Notes under the pieces: model-generated | The model's input: the letters and a program-made list of their open reading frames with translations, nothing else | What the model was told of the DNA's origin: nothing | Database searches by the model: none | Part shown: positions 8,278 to 18,359 of the stretch, piece by piece | Layout of the letters: each line of letters begins with the position of its first letter | Numbering within the stretch: position 1 is the stretch's first letter | NCBI GenBank assembly: GCA_963708015.1 | Contig: OY970185.1 | Location: 471,402 to 535,401 of the forward strand | Origin: an uncultured Chloroflexia bacterium | GTDB taxonomy: Bacteria > Chloroflexota > Limnocylindria > Limnocylindrales > CSP1-4 | Direction: 5' to 3' | DNA length: 64,000 nucleotides | Made by a program: the position numbers and the translations under genes

Positions 8278-9027
8278 TCAGCGCCGGACAGTTCGGATGA
8301 CCCCGCCCATCAGCTTGAGCGAGCGCCGGGCTGCCGTCGGCGACAGCTCGGACAAGGCGGTCACCAGGCCGAGCACCTCTTCATCGGGCAGCTGGCCGAG
8401 CAGGCGGACGAGCCTCAGGATCGTGTCGTCGGGGATCCGGGCGAGGAGGTCGATCAGGTGCTCGAGCTCGGCCGGCTGGAGCACCGGGACGAGGCCGATC
8501 GCCCGGTTGAACAGGCGCACGAACCAGAGGAACGTGGCAAGCCAGTCGCGCAGGTCGGCCAGCTCGGGATCGTCCGGGTACTCGGTCGCGGCCTGGACCG
8601 CGTCCGCCGCGGTTCGCTCGAGGACGTCGATGATCGGGTCGCCCTCGAGTGCCTTGCGGTGCTCGATCACCCGGCTGAACCAGCGGAAGTGGTCGCCGAC
8701 CGAGGCGTAGGCCGACCCGGCGGGTCCCCGCCGACCGACCCGCCGCGGCTCGTCGACCCGCTCGACCACGCCCCAGCTGATCGCCGCGTCCAGGGCGAGG
8801 CTGGCGGCCCGGTGGCTCAGCCCGAGCGCCTCACGCACCTCGCGCTCGGTCAGCGGCTCGCCCCGGGCCATCAGGTAGATGTGGACCCGGGCGATCGCCG
8901 GCGCGACGCCCCACGACGCGCCCATCTCGCCCCAGGCCTCGGCCAGGTCGCGCCGGATCCCCTCGGCTCGGGCAGCGGAATCCGAGCTCCGAGGCTCGTT
9001 CAGAGCAGGTGTCGCGGCGGTGCTCAC
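8278..9027 (-). CDS. MarR/GbsR-like HTH transcriptional regulator
   Basis: Winged-helix region [33 protein letters not shown]; GTG start at 9027 chosen inside a longer track ORF; divergent from the MCC cluster. Confidence 0.55.
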
Positions 9028-9343
9028 TTGTCCATGGACCGTAGCACGTTTCCGGGTCCATGGCCCGGGGTCCGACGAGCGTCGTCCGCGTCGCGCCGGG
9101 CCGCGCCCCCCGGGTCGCGTCGCGTCGCGCCGGGCGTACAGAACCAGGGAATCGAGCGAACCCCAGCCATCGCGGCGGTCCGGTTCGGCCGAAACGTTCG
9201 CACCCGGCGAACAAGCGCGACAAATGCGCCCCCATGCGCCTGCCGATCCCCGGCCTGACGCCATTCTGTTCGTCGCCAGCGACCGGGCCGGGCGGCGGCA
9301 GGGCTTCGCCTCCGGCGACCCGGCGCGCGACCCGCCCGGGGCT

Positions 9344-10972
9344 ATGATCGAGCCCATGACCGTGCTCCGCAGCCGGCTCGATCCGGCGAGTCCCGAAAGC
9401 CTGGCGAACCAGGCCGCGATGGAGGGGCTCGTCGCCGACCTCCGGTCCCGGCAGGCGCGGGTCAGCGCCAACGGGGCCGGCGGCGACCCGGCTGCGATCG
9501 AGAAGCATCGAGCCCGCGGCAAGTTGCCGGTCCGCGAGCGGATCGACCGCCTGCTCGACCCTGGCTCGGCCTTCCTCGAGCTGAGCCCGTTGGCCGCCGA
9601 CGGGGTCTATGGCCCGGATGGCCAGGATGCGCCGAGCGCCGGGATCGTGACCGGCCTCGGCCAGGTCGAGGGCGTGACCTGCGTGATCGTGGCCAACGAC
9701 GCGACCGTCAAGGGCGGGACGTACTACCCGCTGACGGTCAAGAAGCACCTCCGGGCGCAGGAGGTCGCCCTCGAGAACCGGCTGCCGTGCGTCTACCTGG
9801 TCGACTCGGGCGGGGCATTCCTGCCGCTCCAGGCCGACGTCTTTCCGGACCGCGAGCACTTCGGCCGGATCTTCTACAACCAGGCCCGCCTTTCCGCCGC
9901 GGCCGTTCCACAGGTCGCCCTGGTCATGGGCAGCAGCACGGCCGGCGGGGCCTACGTGCCCGCGATGAGTGACGAGACCGTGATCGTCAAGGGCACCGGG
10001 ACGATCTTCCTGGGCGGGCCGCCGCTGGTGAAGGCGGCGACCGGCGAGGACGTCAGCGCCGAGGACCTGGGCGGATCGAGCGTCCATGCCCGGGTCAGCG
10101 GCGTGGTCGATCACGAGGCCCTCGACGACGAGCACGCGATCGCGCTCGGACGCTCGATCGTGAGCAACCTGAATCGGAAGCCGCCGCCGCTGCCCTGGGA
10201 GCGCCGCCCGCCCGAGCCGCCGGCGGTCGCCCCGAATGGCTCGGCCCATCTCTACCAGGCGATCCCGGCCGACCTCCGCCGGCCACTGGCGATCCGCGAG
10301 GTGATCGCCCGGCTGGTTGACGGCAGCCGCTTCCACGAGTTCAAGCCGCTCTACGGCGAGACCCTGGTGTGCGGCTTCGCCCACCTCGACGGCTACCCGA
10401 TCGGGATCATCGCCAATGACGGGATCCTGTTCAGCCAGTCGGCCCTCAAGGGCGCCCATTTCATCGAGCTGGCCGCCCAGCGCCGGATCCCGCTCGTGTT
10501 CCTCCAGAACATCACCGGGTTCATGGTCGGCCGCGAGTACGAGGCGGGCGGGATCGCCAAGGACGGGGCGAAGATGGTCATGGCGGTCGCCTGCGCCGAG
10601 GTCCCGAAGTTCACCGTGCTCGTCGGCGGCAGCTTCGGGGCCGGCAACTACGCGATGTCCGGGCGGGCCTATTCGCCGCGCTTCCTGTGGTCCTGGCCGA
10701 ACAGCCGGATCAGCGTGATGGGCGGCCGGCAGGCAGCCCGGGTCCTGTCCACGGTCGGCGGGCCGTTCGCCTCGGACGAGGAGCGAGACGCATTCGAGGC
10801 CCCGATCCTCGACCGCTACGAGGCCGAGGGCAGCCCCTATTTTGCGAGCGCCCGGCTGTGGGACGACGGGGTGATCGATCCGCTCGATACCCGGCGGGTC
10901 CTGGCCCTGGGCCTGGCCGCCAGCCTCCACGCACCGATCCGCGAGACGCGCTTCGGCGTCTTCCGGATGTAG
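9344..10972 (+). CDS. mccB: methylcrotonyl-CoA carboxylase beta subunit (acyl-CoA carboxyltransferase, AccD1-like)
   Basis: Carboxyltransferase motifs ([32 protein letters not shown]); start at [10 protein letters not shown] inside a longer track ORF. Confidence 0.85.
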
Positions 10973-12072: not shown

Positions 12073-12130
12073 CGTCCGAGGGTAGCCCAGCCGTCCACGC
12101 CGGGTGGGGGCGGGCCGTACGATGATCGGG

Positions 12131-12949
12131 ATGACGGACCATGAGCCTCCCCTGCGGCTCGAGCGGACCGGCCACGACGGCGTCGTGGCCCACCTGACCC
12201 TGGCCCGCCCGGAGCGCCACAACGCGTTCGATGCGTCGCTGATCGCCCAGCTCCGAACGACCTTCGCCGGGCTGGCGAATGAGCCGCCGGAGCGCCTCCG
12301 GGTCGTCGTCCTGGCCGGCGACGGGCCGTCGTTCTGTGCCGGCGCCGACATCGCCTGGATGCGCGCCGCGCTCGAGCTCGAGCTCGAGGCAAACGAGCAG
12401 GACGCGATGGCGATGGCCGAGATGTTCGAGGCGATCGACACCTGTCCAGTCCCGGTTATCGCCCGGGTCCACGGCGCGGCGCTCGGGGGCGGAACCGGCC
12501 TGTGTGCGGTGAGCGACCTCGTGATCGCCGAGTCGGGCACCCGGTTTGGCTTCACCGAGACCCGGCTGGGCATCCTGCCCGCGGTCATCTCGCCCTTCGT
12601 CGTGGCCAAGATCGGCGAGAGCCAGGCCAGGGCGCTCTTCCCGCCCGGTCGCCGGTTCGGTGCCGTCCGGGCCGAGCGGATCGGGCTCGTCCACGAGCTG
12701 GCTGAGGGGGCCGATGCCCTCGATGCGGCCGTTGCCTCGGCCGTGAGCGATGTCCTCGCGGCCGGTCCCACGGCAGCTCGGGCGGCCAAGGCGGTCGTGC
12801 GCGAAGTCCGCGGCTTGCCCCACGGGTCGTCGAAATGGCACACGGCGAGGGTGATTGCCCGACAGCGCCGCACTCCCGAGGCCCAGGAGGGCCTCCGGGC
12901 ATTTGCCGAGAAGCGGCCGCCCAGCTGGACGAATCAGGGCGGCGAGTAG
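12131..12949 (+). CDS. enoyl-CoA hydratase/isomerase (crotonase) family, probably methylglutaconyl-CoA hydratase given context
   Basis: Crotonase fold with oxyanion-hole region FCAGADI and GAALGGG; lies within the MCC/HMGL cluster. Confidence 0.75.
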   Translation: MTDHEPPLRLERTGHDGVVAHLTLARPERHNAFDASLIAQLRTTFAGLANEPPERLRVVVLAGDGPSFCAGADIAWMRAALELELEANEQDAMAMAEMFEAIDTCPVPVIARVHGAALGGGTGLCAVSDLVIAESGTRFGFTETRLGILPAVISPFVVAKIGESQARALFPPGRRFGAVRAERIGLVHELAEGADALDAAVASAVSDVLAAGPTAARAAKAVVREVRGLPHGSSKWHTARVIARQRRTPEAQEGLRAFAEKRPPSWTNQGGE

Positions 12950-13027: not shown

Positions 13028-13588
13028 ATGGGTGGGCAGATGGATACCGACCTCGTGGTTCGGGCCCAGCACGGCGATGAAGAGGCCTTCGCGAACCTCG
13101 CCCTCGCCGCCAGTGGCCGGCTGCACGCGGTCTCGTACAGGATCCTGCGCGACGTCCACCTCGCCGAAGACGCGACGCAGCAGGCGCTGCTGAGCATCTG
13201 GCGAGACCTGCCCCAGCTCCGCGACCCGGCGCTGTTTGACGCCTGGTCGTACCGGCTCCTTGTGCGCGCCTGCTACGCCGAGGGTCGCCGGAGTCGCCAG
13301 GTCGGCGCGAATCTCCATCTTCTGAAGCTCGATGAACCGGGGGTCACCGGGGGCATGAGCGGGGTCGTCGATCGCGACGAGCTCGAGCGGGGGTTCCGGC
13401 GACTGTCAATCGAACATCGCGCCGTGGTCGTCCTGCATCACTACGCCGACCTGCCGGTGGACCAGGTCGCCGAGATCCTCGGCGTCCCGACCGGCACGGT
13501 CCGATCTCGTCTATTCCATGCGATGCGCGGGCTTCGCGCGGCCATCGAGGCCGACGCTCGGCCGGTCCTGCGGGAGGTCGCCCAGTGA
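13028..13588 (+). CDS. ECF (sigma-70 family) RNA polymerase sigma factor
   Basis: Region 2 (AEDATQQALLSIW) and region 4 (DQVAEILGVPTGTVRSRLFHAMRGL) signatures; stop overlaps the downstream start (ATGA). Confidence 0.85.
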   Translation: MGGQMDTDLVVRAQHGDEEAFANLALAASGRLHAVSYRILRDVHLAEDATQQALLSIWRDLPQLRDPALFDAWSYRLLVRACYAEGRRSRQVGANLHLLKLDEPGVTGGMSGVVDRDELERGFRRLSIEHRAVVVLHHYADLPVDQVAEILGVPTGTVRSRLFHAMRGLRAAIEADARPVLREVAQ

Positions 13589-14487
13589 GCACCGATCGCG
13601 AGGTCACCAGCATCGTCCGGTCGTGGCTGGAGGAGGGAGTGAACACGCTTCCGGACCGCGTCCTTGACAGCGTGCTCGACCAACTACCGGCGACGCCACA
13701 ACGCCGAGCCTGGTGGCCCGGGTGGAGGTTACCCAAGGTGAATCATCAAGTTCGGATCGCCGTCGGAGCGGTCGCCCTGCTTGTCCTCGCCCTCATCGCG
13801 TTCTCGTTCGGGCCGAAGGCGGGTGGGGTCGGAGGATCGACGTCGACGGCCAGTCCCAGCCCGAGCGTCCTGGTCGACTTCACCGGTCGATTGCCAGCCG
13901 GAACCTTTGTCGCGGGGGACCCATTCCCGATTCGGGTCACGTTCAGCGTGCCGGCTGGCTGGCAGGCCGAGATCCCGGGGCCCTATGCGGTGTTCCTGAC
14001 GAAACCCCAGGGACCAGCCTCGGTGAACTTCTCGATCTTCAGCGACGTGGACGCAAATCCATGTCACGCCCGGGGCCTGCTCACCCCACCACCCGGACCC
14101 ACCGTGGATGAGCTCGCGACCGCACTGGCGAATCTTCCCGGCCTGGTGCAAACGGCTCCCACTGCCGTCACCTTCGGTGGCTACTCCGGCAAGCAGCTGA
14201 CGCTCACTGCGCCGGCCACGTTCGGTCAGTGCATCTTGACCGCGGACGGAACGTTCGAGGTCTGGCGGCTCCCTCTGGAAGCGACGAATGACCTGACCCC
14301 CGGCGAAAGCGATCGGGTGTGGATCCTCGACGTTGCGGGCCAACGCCTCGTGATCGATGCGCCGCAGAGGCCAGGCGAGACCGCCCAGGATTCGGCCGAG
14401 GTCCAGAGTGTCCTGGACTCGATCCGGCTCGCGCCCCCACCCACGCCGTCCTCAGCACCGAGCTTGCCGGCCGGCACGACGCCATGA
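13585..14487 (+). CDS. putative anti-sigma factor, single-pass membrane protein with extracytoplasmic domain
   Basis: Translationally coupled to the ECF sigma; short cytoplasmic N-terminus, one TM helix (IAVGAVALLVLALIAF), Ser/Pro-rich linker, roughly 200-aa outside domain. Confidence 0.6.
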   Translation: MSTDREVTSIVRSWLEEGVNTLPDRVLDSVLDQLPATPQRRAWWPGWRLPKVNHQVRIAVGAVALLVLALIAFSFGPKAGGVGGSTSTASPSPSVLVDFTGRLPAGTFVAGDPFPIRVTFSVPAGWQAEIPGPYAVFLTKPQGPASVNFSIFSDVDANPCHARGLLTPPPGPTVDELATALANLPGLVQTAPTAVTFGGYSGKQLTLTAPATFGQCILTADGTFEVWRLPLEATNDLTPGESDRVWILDVAGQRLVIDAPQRPGETAQDSAEVQSVLDSIRLAPPPTPSSAPSLPAGTTP

Positions 14488-14566
14488 CCTGATCGGGGTC
14501 CCTGGCTTCGCGGGCACGGAAGGGTCGCTTGCCAGGTGTGGGCCGAAACACGACAATCGCGTCACG

Positions 14567-16654
14567 ATGCCCGATGAGCTGACGCCACGCCAGGCTGCCG
14601 AGCGCCTCGGGGCAACGACCCGTTCGGTTCAGCGCTGGATCGCCGACGGATCGCTGCCAGCCAGGCGGGTTGGCGGTCGATGGCGTGTCGCTTCTGGCGC
14701 GATTGACGCGTACGAACAGAGGACACCAGACTTCGAACGGCTCAAGGCTTCGCCGATCGATCCGATCCGGACTGTCTTCATCGCCAACCGGGGTGAGATC
14801 GCCGTCCGGATCCGGCGATCGGCCGAGGCCCTCGGGATCCGGGTCGTCGTGCCCGGGATGGGCGCCGCTCCGGCGGTGGACCTGCTCGACATCGAGGCGC
14901 TCGTGAGCGCGGCCCGGGCGGCCGGCGCTGACGCCGTTCACCCCGGGTTTGGCTTCCTGTCCGAGAACGCCGACTTCGCCGAGGCCGTCGAGCGGGCCGG
15001 GATCCGCTGGGTCGGGCCGCCCGGCAGCGCAATCCGGGCGATGGGCGACAAGGCGTCGGCCCGCCGGCTGGCTGCAAGCCTGGGGATTCCGGTCGTGCCC
15101 GGCTACGACGGCGACGACCAATCGGACGCGGGGCTGCTCGAAGCGGCCCGGCAGATCGCCGGGAGCAAGACCGGGCGCGACCAACGCGGGCACGCGGTCC
15201 TGATCAAGCCGGCGGCCGGGGGCGGCGGCAAGGGCATGCGGGTCGTGGATCGGCTCGACCCACCTGAACGGTTCATCGAGGCGCTCGAAACGGCCCGGCG
15301 AGAGGCGGCTGCCGCCTTCGGCGACGATCGCCTCATCCTCGAGCGCTTCCTGGACGGGCCCCGCCACGTCGAGATCCAGGTCCTGTTCGACGGGCTCGGC
15401 CTGGGCGTCCACCTCGGCGAGCGCGACTGCTCGCTCCAGCGGCGCCACCAGAAGGTCTTCGAGGAGAGTCCGTCGCCGGCGGTCGACGAGGACCTCCGGC
15501 AGCGCCTTGGGCAGGCTGCCCTGACCCTCGCCGGGTCGGTCGGCTATCGCTCGGCTGGGACCTGCGAGTTCCTGCTTGACGACGATGGCCGGTACCACTT
15601 CCTCGAGATGAATACCCGGCTCCAGGTCGAGCATCCGGTGACCGAGCTGATCACCGGCCGGGATCTCGTGGCCGACCAGCTCCGGATCGCCGCCGGCGAA
15701 CCTCTCGGCTTCGACCAGGCCGAGGCCGACGCGGCCCGGGCCGGCGGCGGTCACGCGATCGAGGTCCGGCTGTACGCCGAGGATCCCGACGCCGGCTTCC
15801 TGCCCTCGGTCGGTCGAATCGAGGCGCTCCGCTGGCCCGGGGCCGGCGTCCGGGTCGATTCGGGGATCGAGGCCGGCTCGGTCGTCGACCTGCGGTTCGA
15901 TCCGATGCTGGCCAAGGTGATCGTCGGCGGACCGACCCGAACCGAGGCCCTGGCCCGGCTCGAGCAGGCGCTGGACGAGACCGTCGTCCTGGGCGTGGTG
16001 ACGAACCTTCACTTCCTGCGCTGGCTGGCCACCCAACCGATCGTCCAGGCCGGCGAGGCGCGGATCGACACGCTCGAGCAGATCTGGCCACCAGCCGGCG
16101 AGGCATCGGCCGAGGGACCGAGCGAGATCGCCTGGGAGGCCGCCGCCTGCACCCTCGCAACGACCGGCGGAGACGGCTGGCGATTGAACGGGCCGGCCCG
16201 AATCCGGCTCGAATCGGGTGGGCTGGAACGCTCCGTCGAGCTCGACGGTCGCGCCGGACGCCTGCTGGCCGTCGTCGACGAGGCCGGCACCGTCTTCGTC
16301 GACGATGACGGCCGGAGCGTGGCGTTCCGGCTCGCGCCACCGCCAGACGTCGATCGAGCCGCCCGCGCTGCGGCCGGCCACGCGTCGGGCGGAGCGCTCG
16401 AGGTCCGCTCGCCGATGCCCGGCCGGGTGCTGGCCGTCCACGTCGGAGCCGGCGCGACCGTTGCGGCCGGCCAGCCGCTCGTGATGATCGAGGCGATGAA
16501 GATGGAGCACGTCGTGACGTCGCCGGCCGGCGGGACGATCGATGAGGTTCTCGTCGCGCGGGGCGAGCAGGTCAATCGCGGCCAGCCGCTGGTCGGCCTG
16601 ACCGCCGGGACGCGAGGCGCTACCGTAGTCGGGCAGATGGAGGAACAACCATGA
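14567..16654 (+). CDS. mccA: methylcrotonyl-CoA carboxylase alpha subunit (biotin carboxylase + BCCP) with N-terminal excisionase/MerR-type HTH extension
   Basis: BC domain (IANRGEIAVRI..., GGGGKGMRVV, EMNTRLQVEHPVTE), C-terminal biotinyl domain with EAMKME; the first roughly 55 aa (LTPRQAAERLGATTRSVQRWIADGSLPARRVGGRWRV) look like an HTH_17 DNA-binding domain fused in frame. Confidence 0.85.
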   Translation: MPDELTPRQAAERLGATTRSVQRWIADGSLPARRVGGRWRVASGAIDAYEQRTPDFERLKASPIDPIRTVFIANRGEIAVRIRRSAEALGIRVVVPGMGAAPAVDLLDIEALVSAARAAGADAVHPGFGFLSENADFAEAVERAGIRWVGPPGSAIRAMGDKASARRLAASLGIPVVPGYDGDDQSDAGLLEAARQIAGSKTGRDQRGHAVLIKPAAGGGGKGMRVVDRLDPPERFIEALETARREAAAAFGDDRLILERFLDGPRHVEIQVLFDGLGLGVHLGERDCSLQRRHQKVFEESPSPAVDEDLRQRLGQAALTLAGSVGYRSAGTCEFLLDDDGRYHFLEMNTRLQVEHPVTELITGRDLVADQLRIAAGEPLGFDQAEADAARAGGGHAIEVRLYAEDPDAGFLPSVGRIEALRWPGAGVRVDSGIEAGSVVDLRFDPMLAKVIVGGPTRTEALARLEQALDETVVLGVVTNLHFLRWLATQPIVQAGEARIDTLEQIWPPAGEASAEGPSEIAWEAAACTLATTGGDGWRLNGPARIRLESGGLERSVELDGRAGRLLAVVDEAGTVFVDDDGRSVAFRLAPPPDVDRAARAAAGHASGGALEVRSPMPGRVLAVHVGAGATVAAGQPLVMIEAMKMEHVVTSPAGGTIDEVLVARGEQVNRGQPLVGLTAGTRGATVVGQMEEQP

Positions 16655-16851
16655 CCGACGCCCTGCCCGCCACCCGGTCCGAGCTCCTGGCCCTCCACGC
16701 GGCGGCCCGCCGCCGGCGCGACGGCGCGAAGCTGGGCGGGCCGGAGTACCGGGCGGCCTGCGAGGAGGTCTCGGCGATCGAGGTCCAGATCGCCCGGATC
16801 GAGATCGGCGGCAACGCGGCCGGCAAGACCGCCGGCCCGACCGCCGGCTGA
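16651..16851 (+). CDS. small hypothetical protein (66 aa), translationally coupled to mccA
   Basis: ATGA overlap with the mccA stop; sits between mccA and the HMG-CoA lyase gene; no homology recognised. Confidence 0.3.
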   Translation: MTDALPATRSELLALHAAARRRRDGAKLGGPEYRAACEEVSAIEVQIARIEIGGNAAGKTAGPTAG

Positions 16852-16860
16852 GCCACGCCG

Positions 16861-17830
16861 ATGGCGGCCGCAGCCGACCCCGACCGAAGGGTCCGGATCT
16901 ACGAGGTCGGGCCGCGCGACGGCCTCCAGAACGAGGCCCGCCCGGTCGCCACAGCAGACAAGCTCCGCTTCATCGAGCTCCTGGCGGCGGCCGGGCTGAC
17001 CGAGATCGAGGCGACGAGCTTCGTCCGCCCCTCGGCGATCCCCCAGCTGGCCGACGCCGACGAGCTCCTCCGGGCGCTTGTTCGAGGGCCGGAGGGCGAG
17101 CCGCGCGGCCGAGCCGTCGTTCGCTACCCCGTCCTCGTCCCGAACGAGCGGGGCCTGGCCCGGGCAGAGGCGGCCGGGGCCGATGCGCTGGCCGTCTTCA
17201 CGGCGGCTTCGGACGCGTTCACGGAGCACAACATCGGGATGACGATCGACGAGTCGATCGAAGCGTTTCGACCGGTCCTGGCCCGGGCCAGCGCGCTGGG
17301 CTGGTGGCGGCGGGCCTACGTCTCGACCGCCTTTGGCTGCCCGTACGTCGGGGCGATCGAGCCGTCGGCTGCCGTGGAGGTTGCCCTGCGCCTGGCCGAG
17401 CTGGGCGTTGACGAGATCTGTTTCGGCGACACGATCGGAGTGGGCGTACCCGACCAGGTCGAAACGCTGACGGGGCTGGCGGTCGAGGCGGGTCTCGCGG
17501 TCGAGCAGATCGCCGTCCATTTCCACGACACCCGGGGCACCGCCCTGGCCAACGTTGCGGCCGGCCTGCGGGCGGGAATCCGGACGTTCGATGCCTCGGC
17601 CGGCGGCACCGGGGGCTGCCCCTATGCGCCCGGTGCTGCGGGCAACCTGGCCACCGAGGACCTCGTCTACTTCCTCGACGCGTCGGGCTGGCAGCCACGG
17701 CGTTCGCCTGGCCGGAGTGCTCGCGGCCGCCCGCTTCATCTCGGACTGCCTCGGACGGCCGCTGGCCTCGAAGGTCGGCCAGGCCGGCGGCTGGGATCCG
17801 GGCACCGGCGCCGCCACCGCGCGGCCCTGA
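16861..17830 (+). CDS. hydroxymethylglutaryl-CoA lyase, interrupted by a single frameshift near 17690
   Basis: DRE_TIM/HMGL sequence (VGPRDGLQNE, FHDTRGTALANV, GGCPYAPGAAGNLATEDLVYFLD). The conserved C-terminus (GVRLAGVLAAARFISDCLGRPLASKV) continues in a different frame (track ORF 17555..17830). Confidence 0.8.
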
Positions 17831-17843
17831 TAGCATCCGCCCC

Positions 17844-18359
17844 ATGGACGGTGCGGTCCTCGTGCTGAACCAGAATTACGAACCGCTCAACGTGTGCAAT
17901 CTGCCGCGCGCGTTCCGGCTCGTCTTCGGCGAGAAGGCCGAGGTGATCGAGTACGACCACCAGATGATCCGCACGCCCCGCCAGGAATTCCGGGCGCCGA
18001 GCGTCATCCGGCTCCAGCACCACATTCGCCGGCCGCGGCCGCGGGTCAAGCTGACCCGGCGCGAGATCTTCGCCCGGGACGGTCATCGCTGCCAGTACTG
18101 CGGGCGCCAGGCCAGCGACCTGACCCTCGACCACGTGATCCCCCGCCATCGGGGCGGCGCCCACAGCTGGGAGAACCTGGTGGCAGCGTGCAAAACGTGC
18201 AACCACCGCAAGGGCGGCAAGACGCTCGACGAAGCCCGTCTCCGGCTGGTCCATCCCCCGTTCGAGCCGCGCAGCGACGTCTATTCCCTGTTCACGCCGT
18301 ATCTCACCGATGAACGGAACGAGGCCTGGCGGGGCTACCTCTTCCTCGGCCGGAACTGA
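17844..18359 (+). CDS. HNH endonuclease family protein
   Basis: HNH motif region CQYCGRQASDLTLDHVIPRHRGGAHSWENLVAACKTCNHRKG. Confidence 0.8.
   Translation: MDGAVLVLNQNYEPLNVCNLPRAFRLVFGEKAEVIEYDHQMIRTPRQEFRAPSVIRLQHHIRRPRPRVKLTRREIFARDGHRCQYCGRQASDLTLDHVIPRHRGGAHSWENLVAACKTCNHRKGGKTLDEARLRLVHPPFEPRSDVYSLFTPYLTDERNEAWRGYLFLGRN

Follow-up and report, generated by a model that had tools for sequence, protein, structure and literature searches.

A helix-turn-helix domain fused to an MCC-type carboxylase subunit and a conserved pair of candidate operators at its gene in Limnocylindria

Why would the alpha subunit of a biotin-dependent carboxylase begin with a DNA-binding domain? The gene that raises this question lies at 14567-16654 (+ strand) of a 64,000-nucleotide stretch of DNA (the window; G+C ~71%) from an uncultured Chloroflexia bacterium of the Limnocylindria (contig OY970185.1, positions 471,402 to 535,401). 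Its product of 695 amino acids (plus stop, with no internal stop) begins MPDELTPRQAAERLGATTRSVQRWIADGSLPARRVGGRWRVASGAIDAY...IRTVFIANRGEIAVRI and joins a helix-turn-helix (HTH) module to the biotin carboxylase (BC), BT and BCCP (biotin carboxyl carrier protein) parts of an alpha subunit resembling that of 3-methylcrotonyl-CoA carboxylase (MCC). Two copies of one DNA element accompany the fusion: O1, over the gene's own predicted promoter, and O2, inside the HTH-coding sequence. This pair makes it probable that the enzyme subunit represses its own gene.

The initial annotation had described the N-terminus as an excisionase/MerR-type HTH module that runs without a stop into the carboxylase, and both parts of this description are borne out. 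Pfam HTH_17 (PF12728) matches residues 5-52 (14579-14722, +) with 42.6 bits (gathering score 27), or 47.8 bits when the N-terminal 68 amino acids are searched in isolation, and the NCBIfam model TIGR01764 ('excisionase family DNA-binding') scores 39.6 bits (cut-off 28.8). On the 695-residue protein, Pfam MerR and MerR_1 both stayed under their cut-offs, and the NCBIfam BldC model NF033787 reached 17.4 bits against a cut-off of 77. The AlphaFold2 (AF2) model of the HTH alone (predicted local distance difference test, pLDDT, 85.8) contains a helix at residues 7-14, the recognition helix at 18-27, strands at 33-35 and 38-42, and a last helix at 43-52, giving the order strand-helix-helix-wing-helix with the wing at residues 32-42. 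In the full-length model (mean pLDDT 89.8), the HTH scores 85-91 and the linker that follows it ~57. Foldseek places the module closest to Xis of mycobacteriophage Pukovnik (4j2n; template modelling (TM) score 0.78-0.81) and to BldC bound to DNA (6ama/6amk; TM 0.76-0.83), followed by RacA (DNA complex), the excisionase RdfS and the N-terminal domains of MerR proteins; every one of these is a DNA binder. Profile matches to the PDB agree (4j2n, E 5e-10; RacA, 1.5e-6; BldC, 1e-3), and in the profile alignment the base-contacting Arg30 of BldC falls on the invariant R23 of the SVQRW motif. Further residues of the recognition helix and wing are invariant as well (R19, V21, Q22, W24, R34 and R38). 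The HTH is thus a bona fide member of the DNA-binding HTH_17/excisionase fold family; from these conserved residues, together with the co-conserved cis-elements described below, we infer that it binds DNA.

The remainder of the protein appears to be a complete enzyme subunit. A linker, delimited by alignment and AF2 (residues 53-66, 14723-14764), leads into the BC domain (residues 67-506, 14765-16084), and the BCCP or biotinyl domain (residues 612-676, 16400-16594; Biotin_lipoyl 65.1 bits) carries the biotinyl-lysine K645 in the motif EAMKME (nt 16499-16501), all on the + strand. Pfam recognises Biotin_carb_N, CPSase_L_D2, Biotin_carb_C and Biotin_lipoyl. Across 67 aligned homologues, the GGGGKG glycine loop, EMNTRLQVEHP, R401 of the HAxExRxYAED-type motif and A643-M644-K645-M646 are all invariant. 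The subunit is proposed to be catalytically competent and of the BC-BT-BCCP type. One departure from known enzymes concerns the BC N-terminal subdomain, wherein a clade-specific deletion of ~20 residues (window 14860-14880, between residues ~98 and ~105) replaces the canonical 'YSxADxxxxHVxxADEAxxIG' with PGMGAAPAVDLLD. The lost segment corresponds to residues 51-70 of Haemophilus influenzae BC (4mv1) and 78-97 of human MCC-alpha and is present in all solved BC structures; the deletion is common to the whole HTH-bearing clade and is shorter in a second subfamily introduced below. Among the same 67 homologues, the HTH core is the most conserved segment of all (top-residue frequency 0.87, compared with 0.77-0.81 in the BC subdomains), while the linker is hypervariable in sequence (0.27) and in length (9-48 amino acids).

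The initial annotation had also proposed looking for the same fusion in orthologous genes and had raised two doubts, namely a recent gene fusion and a local sequence error merging two genes that in relatives would be separated by a stop and a new start. The fusion proved widespread: among the 120 best database proteins (61-99% identity), 110 carry the HTH at the N-terminus and the other 10 are shorter gene calls that start within the HTH or linker. A pattern derived from the HTH alignment gave 421 confirmed stretches in a one-genome-per-species collection, and in each of the best 80 of these 421, which were examined, the HTH lies directly ahead of the BC gene. These 80 loci come from metagenome-assembled genomes (MAGs) of the Chloroflexota or 'Candidatus Limnocylindrales' type, except for four MAGs with other phylum labels. 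From the HTH, the frame stays open into the BC start ANRGE in all 46 assemblies from outside the Microflora Danica (MFD) nanopore collection and in 27 of the 34 MFD assemblies. Frame breaks were seen only in nanopore MAGs, as 1-nt indels, several of which can occur per gene. In the closest broken relative (L001, 91% amino acid identity), one such indel in the linker puts the HTH and BC in different frames and a second break precedes the BCCP domain; other MFD loci have the gene in three pieces. The breaks are assembly errors in error-prone long-read contigs, not separate genes, which removes the suspicion of a merged pair.

A recent origin fares no better. A second, diverged subfamily, whose HTH is ~55-60% identical ('...ELGVTVRTVQRWIADGRLPATRVGGRVRVSRSSL...'), shows the same synteny, is also from Limnocylindria and appears as short fragments owing to frameshifts and contig ends. 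Because two diverged subfamilies share the fusion and the HTH core is its most conserved segment, the fusion must be old and under selection. An actinobacterial origin of this second subfamily was considered and ruled out, as it belongs to Limnocylindria/Chloroflexota and shares the synteny of the liu (leucine/isovalerate utilisation) cluster. The start codon ATG 14567 is supported by homologues that begin at the same M-x-D/E-E-L and by a promoter-like element that ends 2-6 nt upstream of it; a longer in-frame reading from ATG 14357 was rejected, since it overlaps the upstream gene and its upstream part is unconserved.

Several by-products of gene calling and assembly were encountered in these collections. 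Nanopore MAGs often have the gene split by 1-nt indels into two or three called pieces, as in L001 (5870-8066), L083 (8001-10131), L085 and L086; of the 34 MFD loci, 7 are affected. Indels of this kind make an HTH appear to stand alone and a BC appear to lack one, and they are also behind many unusual cluster representatives, whose HTH runs on into '...DPDPxHRQPGRDR', a wrong-frame reading of IDPIRTLFIANRGEI. In some homologues, gene callers translate the promoter element as '...CDNRDT M...'. One protein of 203 amino acids on a 969-bp contig (P0212) runs from the HTH through the BC N-terminal region to HPGYGFLAENAAFA and then into the C-terminal end of an enoyl-CoA hydratase (...EGLSAFLEKRPPSW), being either a deletion that joined neighbouring genes or an assembly chimera. 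Many library proteins made of 2-8 tandem HTH_17 repeats (400-560 amino acids; P0121, P0122, P0124, P0128 and others) also score high against this HTH. They would be natural readers of direct-repeat arrays and are unrelated to the carboxylase.

If the HTH is real and old, which DNA might it read? When the 150 nt upstream of the start codon were aligned for ~80 loci, the DNA was unrelated save for one block ending 2-6 nt before the ATG, (A)YGCGAC[A/G]ATC[G/A]CG[A/C/T]CA. A relaxed pattern, [GA]CGAC[AGC][AC]TC[GA]CG, occurs in 83/83 loci at 16-26 nt before the start codon with unconserved flanks; positions outside this pattern are fixed too, with C at +13 in 83/83 loci and A at +14 in 82/83. The second subfamily also has the element. 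In the window, O1 occupies 14547-14564 (+), reads AACACGACAATCGCGTCA and consists of two head-to-tail 9-bp units, AACACGACA and ATCGCGTCA. Within it are a -10 hexamer, GACAAT (14552-14557), and, 3 nt ahead of the ATG, the A (14564) at which transcription is predicted to begin. A -35-like hexamer, TTGCCA (14529-14534, +), was found 17 nt upstream of the -10 in a promoter scan (9/12 matches; none in 50 shuffles). When the loci are anchored on O1, T, G and C are enriched at -21, -19 and -18 (50-61 of 83 loci). TTGC(C) precedes the -10 by 17 nt in about 60% of loci, and the remainder have TATGCGACAAT, with an extended -10 TG. The invariant A of O1 follows the -10 at a distance of 7 nt and precedes the ATG by 3-4 nt; in the second subfamily it coincides with the A of the ATG. 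With this A so close to or within the start codon, the alpha mRNA is predicted to be leaderless or nearly so, and the promoter to be of the sigma-70 type with a start site at this A. A promoter of the extracytoplasmic function (ECF) sigma type was considered and rejected: GAAC and CGTC, spaced by ~12 nt, stand too close together, and the neighbourhood's sigma gene is not consistently adjacent. One locus (L056, 5956-5998) has two tandem copies of the O1 core upstream of the gene (GATGCGCGACAATCGCGGCGCCACGCGATGCGCGACAATCGCGCCACCTGATG).

O2 lies within the coding sequence for the last helix of the HTH, inverted with respect to O1, as three head-to-tail 9-bp units, GTACGCGTC, AATCGCGCC and AGAAGCGAC (14686-14712, - strand). 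It occupies codons 40-49, which encode R-V-A-S-G-A-I-D-A-Y in the window and R-V-A-x-D-A-I/L-D-A-F across the clade. The clade consensus of O2, read as the reverse complement, is GAACGCGTC, AATCGCGTC and AGACGCGAC, and that of the O1 units is nAYGCGACA and ATCGCGnCA; both are built from a shared 9-bp unit, AWCGCGWCA, present twice in O1 and three times in O2. The centres of the two elements are 147-151 bp apart (mode 149). Codon choice within O2 is extreme. Where residue 46 is Ile, the codon is ATT in 41/41 loci (background 4.6%), and where it is Leu, only TTA (18), TTG (14) and CTT (7) are used, which makes 39/39 for codons with a combined background of 6.4%; CTC and CTG, with a background of 93%, never appear. 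Codon 43 varies between S, I, T, F, N, P and R but ends in T in 78/80 loci. R40 is CGT in 72/79, V41 is GTC in 77/79 and D47 is GAC in 79/79, and A45 and A48 are mostly GCG. Elsewhere in the HTH, four-fold sites at invariant residues are saturated (third-base entropy 1.5-2.0 bits). The second subfamily keeps the minus-strand O2 core GAGCGACGAACGCGACA 137 bp after O1, where the peptide is VSRSSL instead of DAIDAF, and the O1/O2 repeats are conserved across proteins that are only ~60% identical. As rare codons are fixed, and a third base is fixed under a variable amino acid, these codon counts show that O2 is under selection at the DNA level and not as protein alone.

The element is specific to this gene within the DNA scanned, which comprised ~12 kb per genome and the one 64-kb window. 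In 0.97 Mb of loci, the strict 17-mer A[CT]GCG[AT]CNAN[CT][GA]CGNCA was matched 130 times, in every case at O1 or O2. A position weight matrix run over the 64-kb window ranks O1 (30.0 bits) and O2 (28.8 bits) as the top two, and the next match reaches 14.8 bits. This weak O-like match, AAGCGCGACAAATGCGCCC at 9213-9231 (+), is followed by an ATG and a 37-codon open reading frame and lies ~120 nt 5' of the MCC-beta gene. It was considered as a third operator and dismissed, as it is not conserved in 46 other loci; the O element is absent from the MCC-beta promoters of the 46 loci compared, and likewise from an HTH-less BC paralogue (L086). The MCC-beta genes of these 46 loci instead have TATCAT or TATGAT 7 nt before the ATG (cTATCATCGnnnCATG; window 9338-9358), with variable flanks and no Shine-Dalgarno sequence. 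Since MCC-beta promoters are of this type, leaderless promoters look normal in the clade, but the extended invariant block is specific to the alpha gene; the pattern also suggests that leaderless transcripts are common in this lineage. A metagenome-wide scan for AYGCGACAATCGCGNCA returned at least 120 stretches. Among the matches listed, 103 were unrelated chance matches, from organisms of 34-73% GC and often carrying G at N, a base that real O1 sites never have there, and only 8 were HTH-BC genes, and the scan is therefore uninformative on any wider regulon.

These findings bear on the earlier suggestion that the fused domain could autoregulate the leucine-catabolic cluster, acting on the DNA upstream of the beta gene (9027-9344) or of the alpha gene (14488-14566). 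Indirect evidence favours control of the gene's own promoter, with O1 lying within 14488-14566 and O2 in the coding sequence. Control of the whole cluster finds no such support, as the region upstream of MCC-beta holds only the 14.8-bit match, compared with 29-30 bits for O1 and O2, and that match is unconserved elsewhere.

We accordingly propose, with a probability of roughly 60%, that the HTH-BC protein is an autoregulatory 'trigger enzyme' whose HTH binds the O1 and O2 arrays in the manner of BldC or Xis. The alignments show that O1 and O2 co-occur with the HTH in two subfamilies. The link between domain and element is drawn from this co-occurrence, from the position of O2 within HTH-coding DNA, from a repeat architecture that fits the fold and from the controls that lack the element (beta promoters and the paralogue L086); that the HTH is the reader, that the outcome is repression, and that looping or any metabolic signal is involved, is what we infer beyond this. 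In such a mechanism, the 9-bp direct repeats would be bound in arrays by a Xis/BldC-type winged helix that sits on a flexible linker. O1, with its two units, spans the -10 hexamer, the discriminator and the predicted start, and its occupancy would exclude RNA polymerase and repress transcription. O2, if occupied in the early transcribed region, could be a roadblock, or it could anchor the other end of an O1-O2 repression loop. MCC is an alpha6-beta6 assembly with alpha trimers at each end. The alpha subunit studied here is likewise expected to be multimeric, and therefore cooperative binding of head-to-tail units and bridging of O1 and O2 would both be possible. Synthesis of alpha, and probably also of the downstream 3-hydroxy-3-methylglutaryl-CoA (HMG-CoA) lyase, would then be self-limiting and tied to the amount or state of alpha. 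Given that the beta gene has its own, unregulated-looking promoter, alpha/beta balancing is one plausible purpose. Substrate or biotinylation state could conceivably serve as the signal.

Several points weigh against autoregulation by the fused HTH. DNA binding is a prediction from sequence and fold, and all the organisms are uncultured and represented by MAGs. The transcription start is likewise a prediction, and part of the invariance of O1 could come from promoter function. The co-occurrence comparison is incomplete, covering the two HTH-bearing subfamilies and, as controls, the MCC-beta promoters and the paralogue L086 rather than HTH-less orthologues of the liu cluster from sister lineages. 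The AF2 confidence values apply within domains, and the HTH may or may not dock on BC. Finally, the CGCG cores are self-complementary, so that direct and inverted readings of the units are not fully separable, although the direct-repeat fit is the better one (8/9 positions compared with 5/6).

Could the elements and the domain be unconnected? It seems unlikely that O1 and O2 are read by a separately encoded regulator and that the fused HTH has some other target or role. Proteobacterial leucine/isovalerate utilisation genes are under a stand-alone MerR-family regulator, LiuR, and the scans, which covered ~12 kb per genome and one 64-kb window, leave room for such a regulator. However, the elements accompany the HTH in both subfamilies and O2 is part of the HTH-coding sequence, the 9-bp head-to-tail architecture suits the Xis/BldC fold of the HTH, and no conserved regulator gene adjoins the locus, an ECF sigma pair not being consistently adjacent. 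Less probable again is an HTH that no longer binds DNA and serves as a protein-protein, assembly or allosteric module, in which case O1 would be a specialised promoter and O2 would reflect an unrelated constraint. The ~20-residue BC deletion in the same clade, for which an extra domain might compensate, and the capacity of Xis/BldC-type domains to mediate oligomerisation make this conceivable. Yet it is the recognition helix and wing that hold the invariant residues, the linker varies greatly in both length and sequence, unlike that of a docked domain, and the repetition of the O1 unit in O2 by means of rare codons would be left unexplained.

A different kind of explanation places the signal in RNA or in a second promoter. 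O1 and O2 are inverted copies, 17/18 positions of which are pairable in ATT-type loci, and a stem in a read-through transcript might hide the translation start; in a variant of this idea, the reverse complement of O2 would offer GTCAAT, a -10-like hexamer, to an antisense promoter. Both are very unlikely. Position +3 is an A-A mismatch in 79/79 loci, and the pairable fraction at every variable column equals the expectation for independence, with no covariation; O1 and O2 therefore look like independently maintained double-stranded DNA sites of one consensus. The Leu-codon variants (TAA, CAA or AAG in the reverse complement of O2) keep an A-rich triplet while breaking the pairing, and they remove the -10 T of the antisense promoter in about half of the loci. 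Moreover, the predicted start leaves O1 untranscribed, and Rfam gave no match. An antisense promoter or an internal -35 at O2 was dropped for the further reason that it accounts for the ATT and CTT variants only, and not for TTA and TTG. Hardly credible, lastly, is an artefact, be it two genes merged by error or an excisionase cassette recently inserted beside a carboxylase. The separate frames in L001, the family name 'excisionase' and the inverted repeats that bracket the HTH would fit, but the breaks are confined to nanopore MAGs while 46/46 other assemblies are in frame, there is no integrase, metabolic synteny is conserved and the repeats are under purifying selection. An invertible segment or a miniature inverted-repeat transposable element (MITE) between O1 and O2 was rejected on similar grounds: 0/83 loci are inverted, a recombinase is lacking, and selection has maintained the repeats over the long term.

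Autoregulation through O1 and O2 admits a bolder version, which is doubtful but worth stating. The ~750-kDa alpha6-beta6 holoenzyme, or free alpha trimers, would itself be the looping repressor, its clustered HTHs polymerising head-to-tail on O1 and O2; O2 would have shaped the peptide and codons of the very domain that reads it, and how far the sites are occupied would signal in which state of assembly or catalysis the enzyme is. If true, it would define a new class of trigger enzymes among biotin-dependent carboxylases.

Comparison with known systems helps to place the proposal. BldC binds arrays of 9-bp head-to-tail repeats, AATTxxxxC, in varying number and as multimers, each repeat consisting of an A/T-rich segment and then a fixed C-G, and an Arg of the recognition helix reads a G (PMC5859096). 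The HTH described here shares with Streptomyces BldC (6ama, 6amk) the winged-HTH fold and the aligned base-contacting Arg, and its candidate sites, of two and three AWCGCGWCA units, have a 9-bp period. In contrast, BldC is a free 68-residue pleiotropic developmental regulator, whereas the HTH here is fused to a 630-residue enzyme with seemingly a single target locus; the core of the repeat is GC-rich (CGCG), and the protein, being fused and below the NF033787 cut-off, is not a member of the BldC family. The Pukovnik Xis gp37 (4j2n), closest by both sequence and fold, and RdfS (8dgl) are the closest solved relatives and oligomerise on repeated sites. Unlike these, the present locus has no integrase, att site or mobile element, and the protein is not an excisionase in function. 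Nor is it a classical MerR regulator. Those proteins have a coiled-coil dimerisation helix, an effector domain and a palindromic operator in a 19-20 bp spacer, whereas here a disordered linker and BC come after the HTH, the spacer is 17 bp and the element covers the -10 and the start.

Functionally, the nearest parallels are the trigger enzymes BirA, PutA, RbkR and NadR, which likewise combine an enzyme and a DNA-binding domain in one polypeptide; here a conserved candidate operator lies over the alpha gene's own promoter, and BirA belongs to biotin metabolism too. The folds differ, as BirA has another winged HTH and PutA a ribbon-helix-helix, and here the enzyme is a biotin-dependent carboxylase subunit of a large heteromer with one candidate operator inside the coding sequence of the DNA-binding domain. 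In Escherichia coli, AccB autoregulates accBC and the AccA/AccD carboxyltransferase binds mRNA, which balances subunit levels; no dedicated DNA-binding domain is involved there, whereas a canonical winged HTH is fused here. As an enzyme, the protein resembles the MCC alpha subunits of Pseudomonas aeruginosa (3u9s), human (8j4z) and Leishmania (8f41), which share the BC-BT-BCCP order and are among the best PDB matches for the BC N-terminal region; it differs from them in the extra N-terminal HTH and the ~20-residue deletion. The 'helix-turn-helix' of a preprint on Legionella MCC was set aside, as it is a structural motif in the beta subunit and unrelated.

Enzymes that double as transcription factors are few, and none was found reported among biotin-dependent carboxylases in the open-access literature, in which no description of an HTH-carboxylase fusion was found either. 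Such proteins already carry the automatic label 'excisionase family DNA binding protein', so that the domain combination is visible in databases; the novelty seems to lie in the conserved operator pair and in how it is interpreted. O2 is of particular interest as a clear case of a DNA signal that overrides codon preference, and even peptide, inside the gene of its presumed reader. The proposal gives precise DNA targets, namely five 9-bp units at defined coordinates. Limnocylindria are abundant uncultured Chloroflexota of soil and freshwater, the promoters and regulatory sites of which are practically unknown, and the leaderless promoter patterns described here should be useful for their annotation. 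Annotators may further note that HTH-BC genes are named 'excisionase family DNA binding protein' or truncated at internal starts and that nanopore MAGs fragment them.

The neighbouring genes support the identity of the enzyme. Upstream lie a carboxyltransferase of the MCC-beta type (9356-10972, +; Carboxyl_trans 486.7 bits), which has a leaderless-type TATGAT promoter of its own and lacks the O element, and a crotonase (about 12104-12949) that profile searches assign to the methylglutaconyl-CoA or carboxygeranoyl-CoA hydratase type; downstream is an HMG-CoA lyase (16861-17868, +; NF004283, 326 bits, cut-off 246). The gene order around the HMG-CoA lyase is the same in L001, L002 and L083, and the lyase would presumably be co-transcribed with the alpha gene. 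Its domains and these neighbours identify the gene product as an MCC-type alpha subunit and the cluster as one of the leucine/isovalerate type, in agreement with the initial annotation, and this catabolic cluster is syntenic across the 86 related loci examined. As the substrate, 3-methylcrotonyl-CoA is a candidate, next to geranyl-CoA or other acyl-CoAs. None of the NCBIfam equivalogs passes its cut-off for the alpha or the carboxyltransferase (beta) protein, and the hydratase bears a likeness to gamma-carboxygeranoyl-CoA hydratase as well, with a score of 204.8 bits that stays under the cut-off. No integrase was found near the HTH-BC locus, the neighbours being the carboxyltransferase, the hydratase, the HMG-CoA lyase, an HNH endonuclease and a CCA-adding enzyme.

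Some further features of the locus may be recorded. Directly 5' of the HTH-BC promoter, at 13028-14487 (+), are an ECF-type sigma factor (186 amino acids) and an overlapping 300-residue protein, possibly an anti-sigma factor, that has no family match; the pair is adjacent in the window and in L001, farther off in L002 and absent near L083 and L084. Between the alpha gene and the HMG-CoA lyase lies an open reading frame of 66 amino acids (MTDALPATRSELLALHAAARRRRDG...; 16651-16851, +). It has no family match, but L001 and L002 have a called gene of 67-70 amino acids at its position. A small accessory subunit, comparable to the epsilon subunits that actinobacterial acyl-CoA carboxylases possess, is one possibility. 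The HNH endonuclease gene (171 amino acids; 17844-18359, +) overlaps the end of the HMG-CoA lyase and is followed by the gene for the CCA-adding enzyme. It stands at the same place in L001 (9059-9574) and L002 (13299-13814), odd in its company but stable in gene order.

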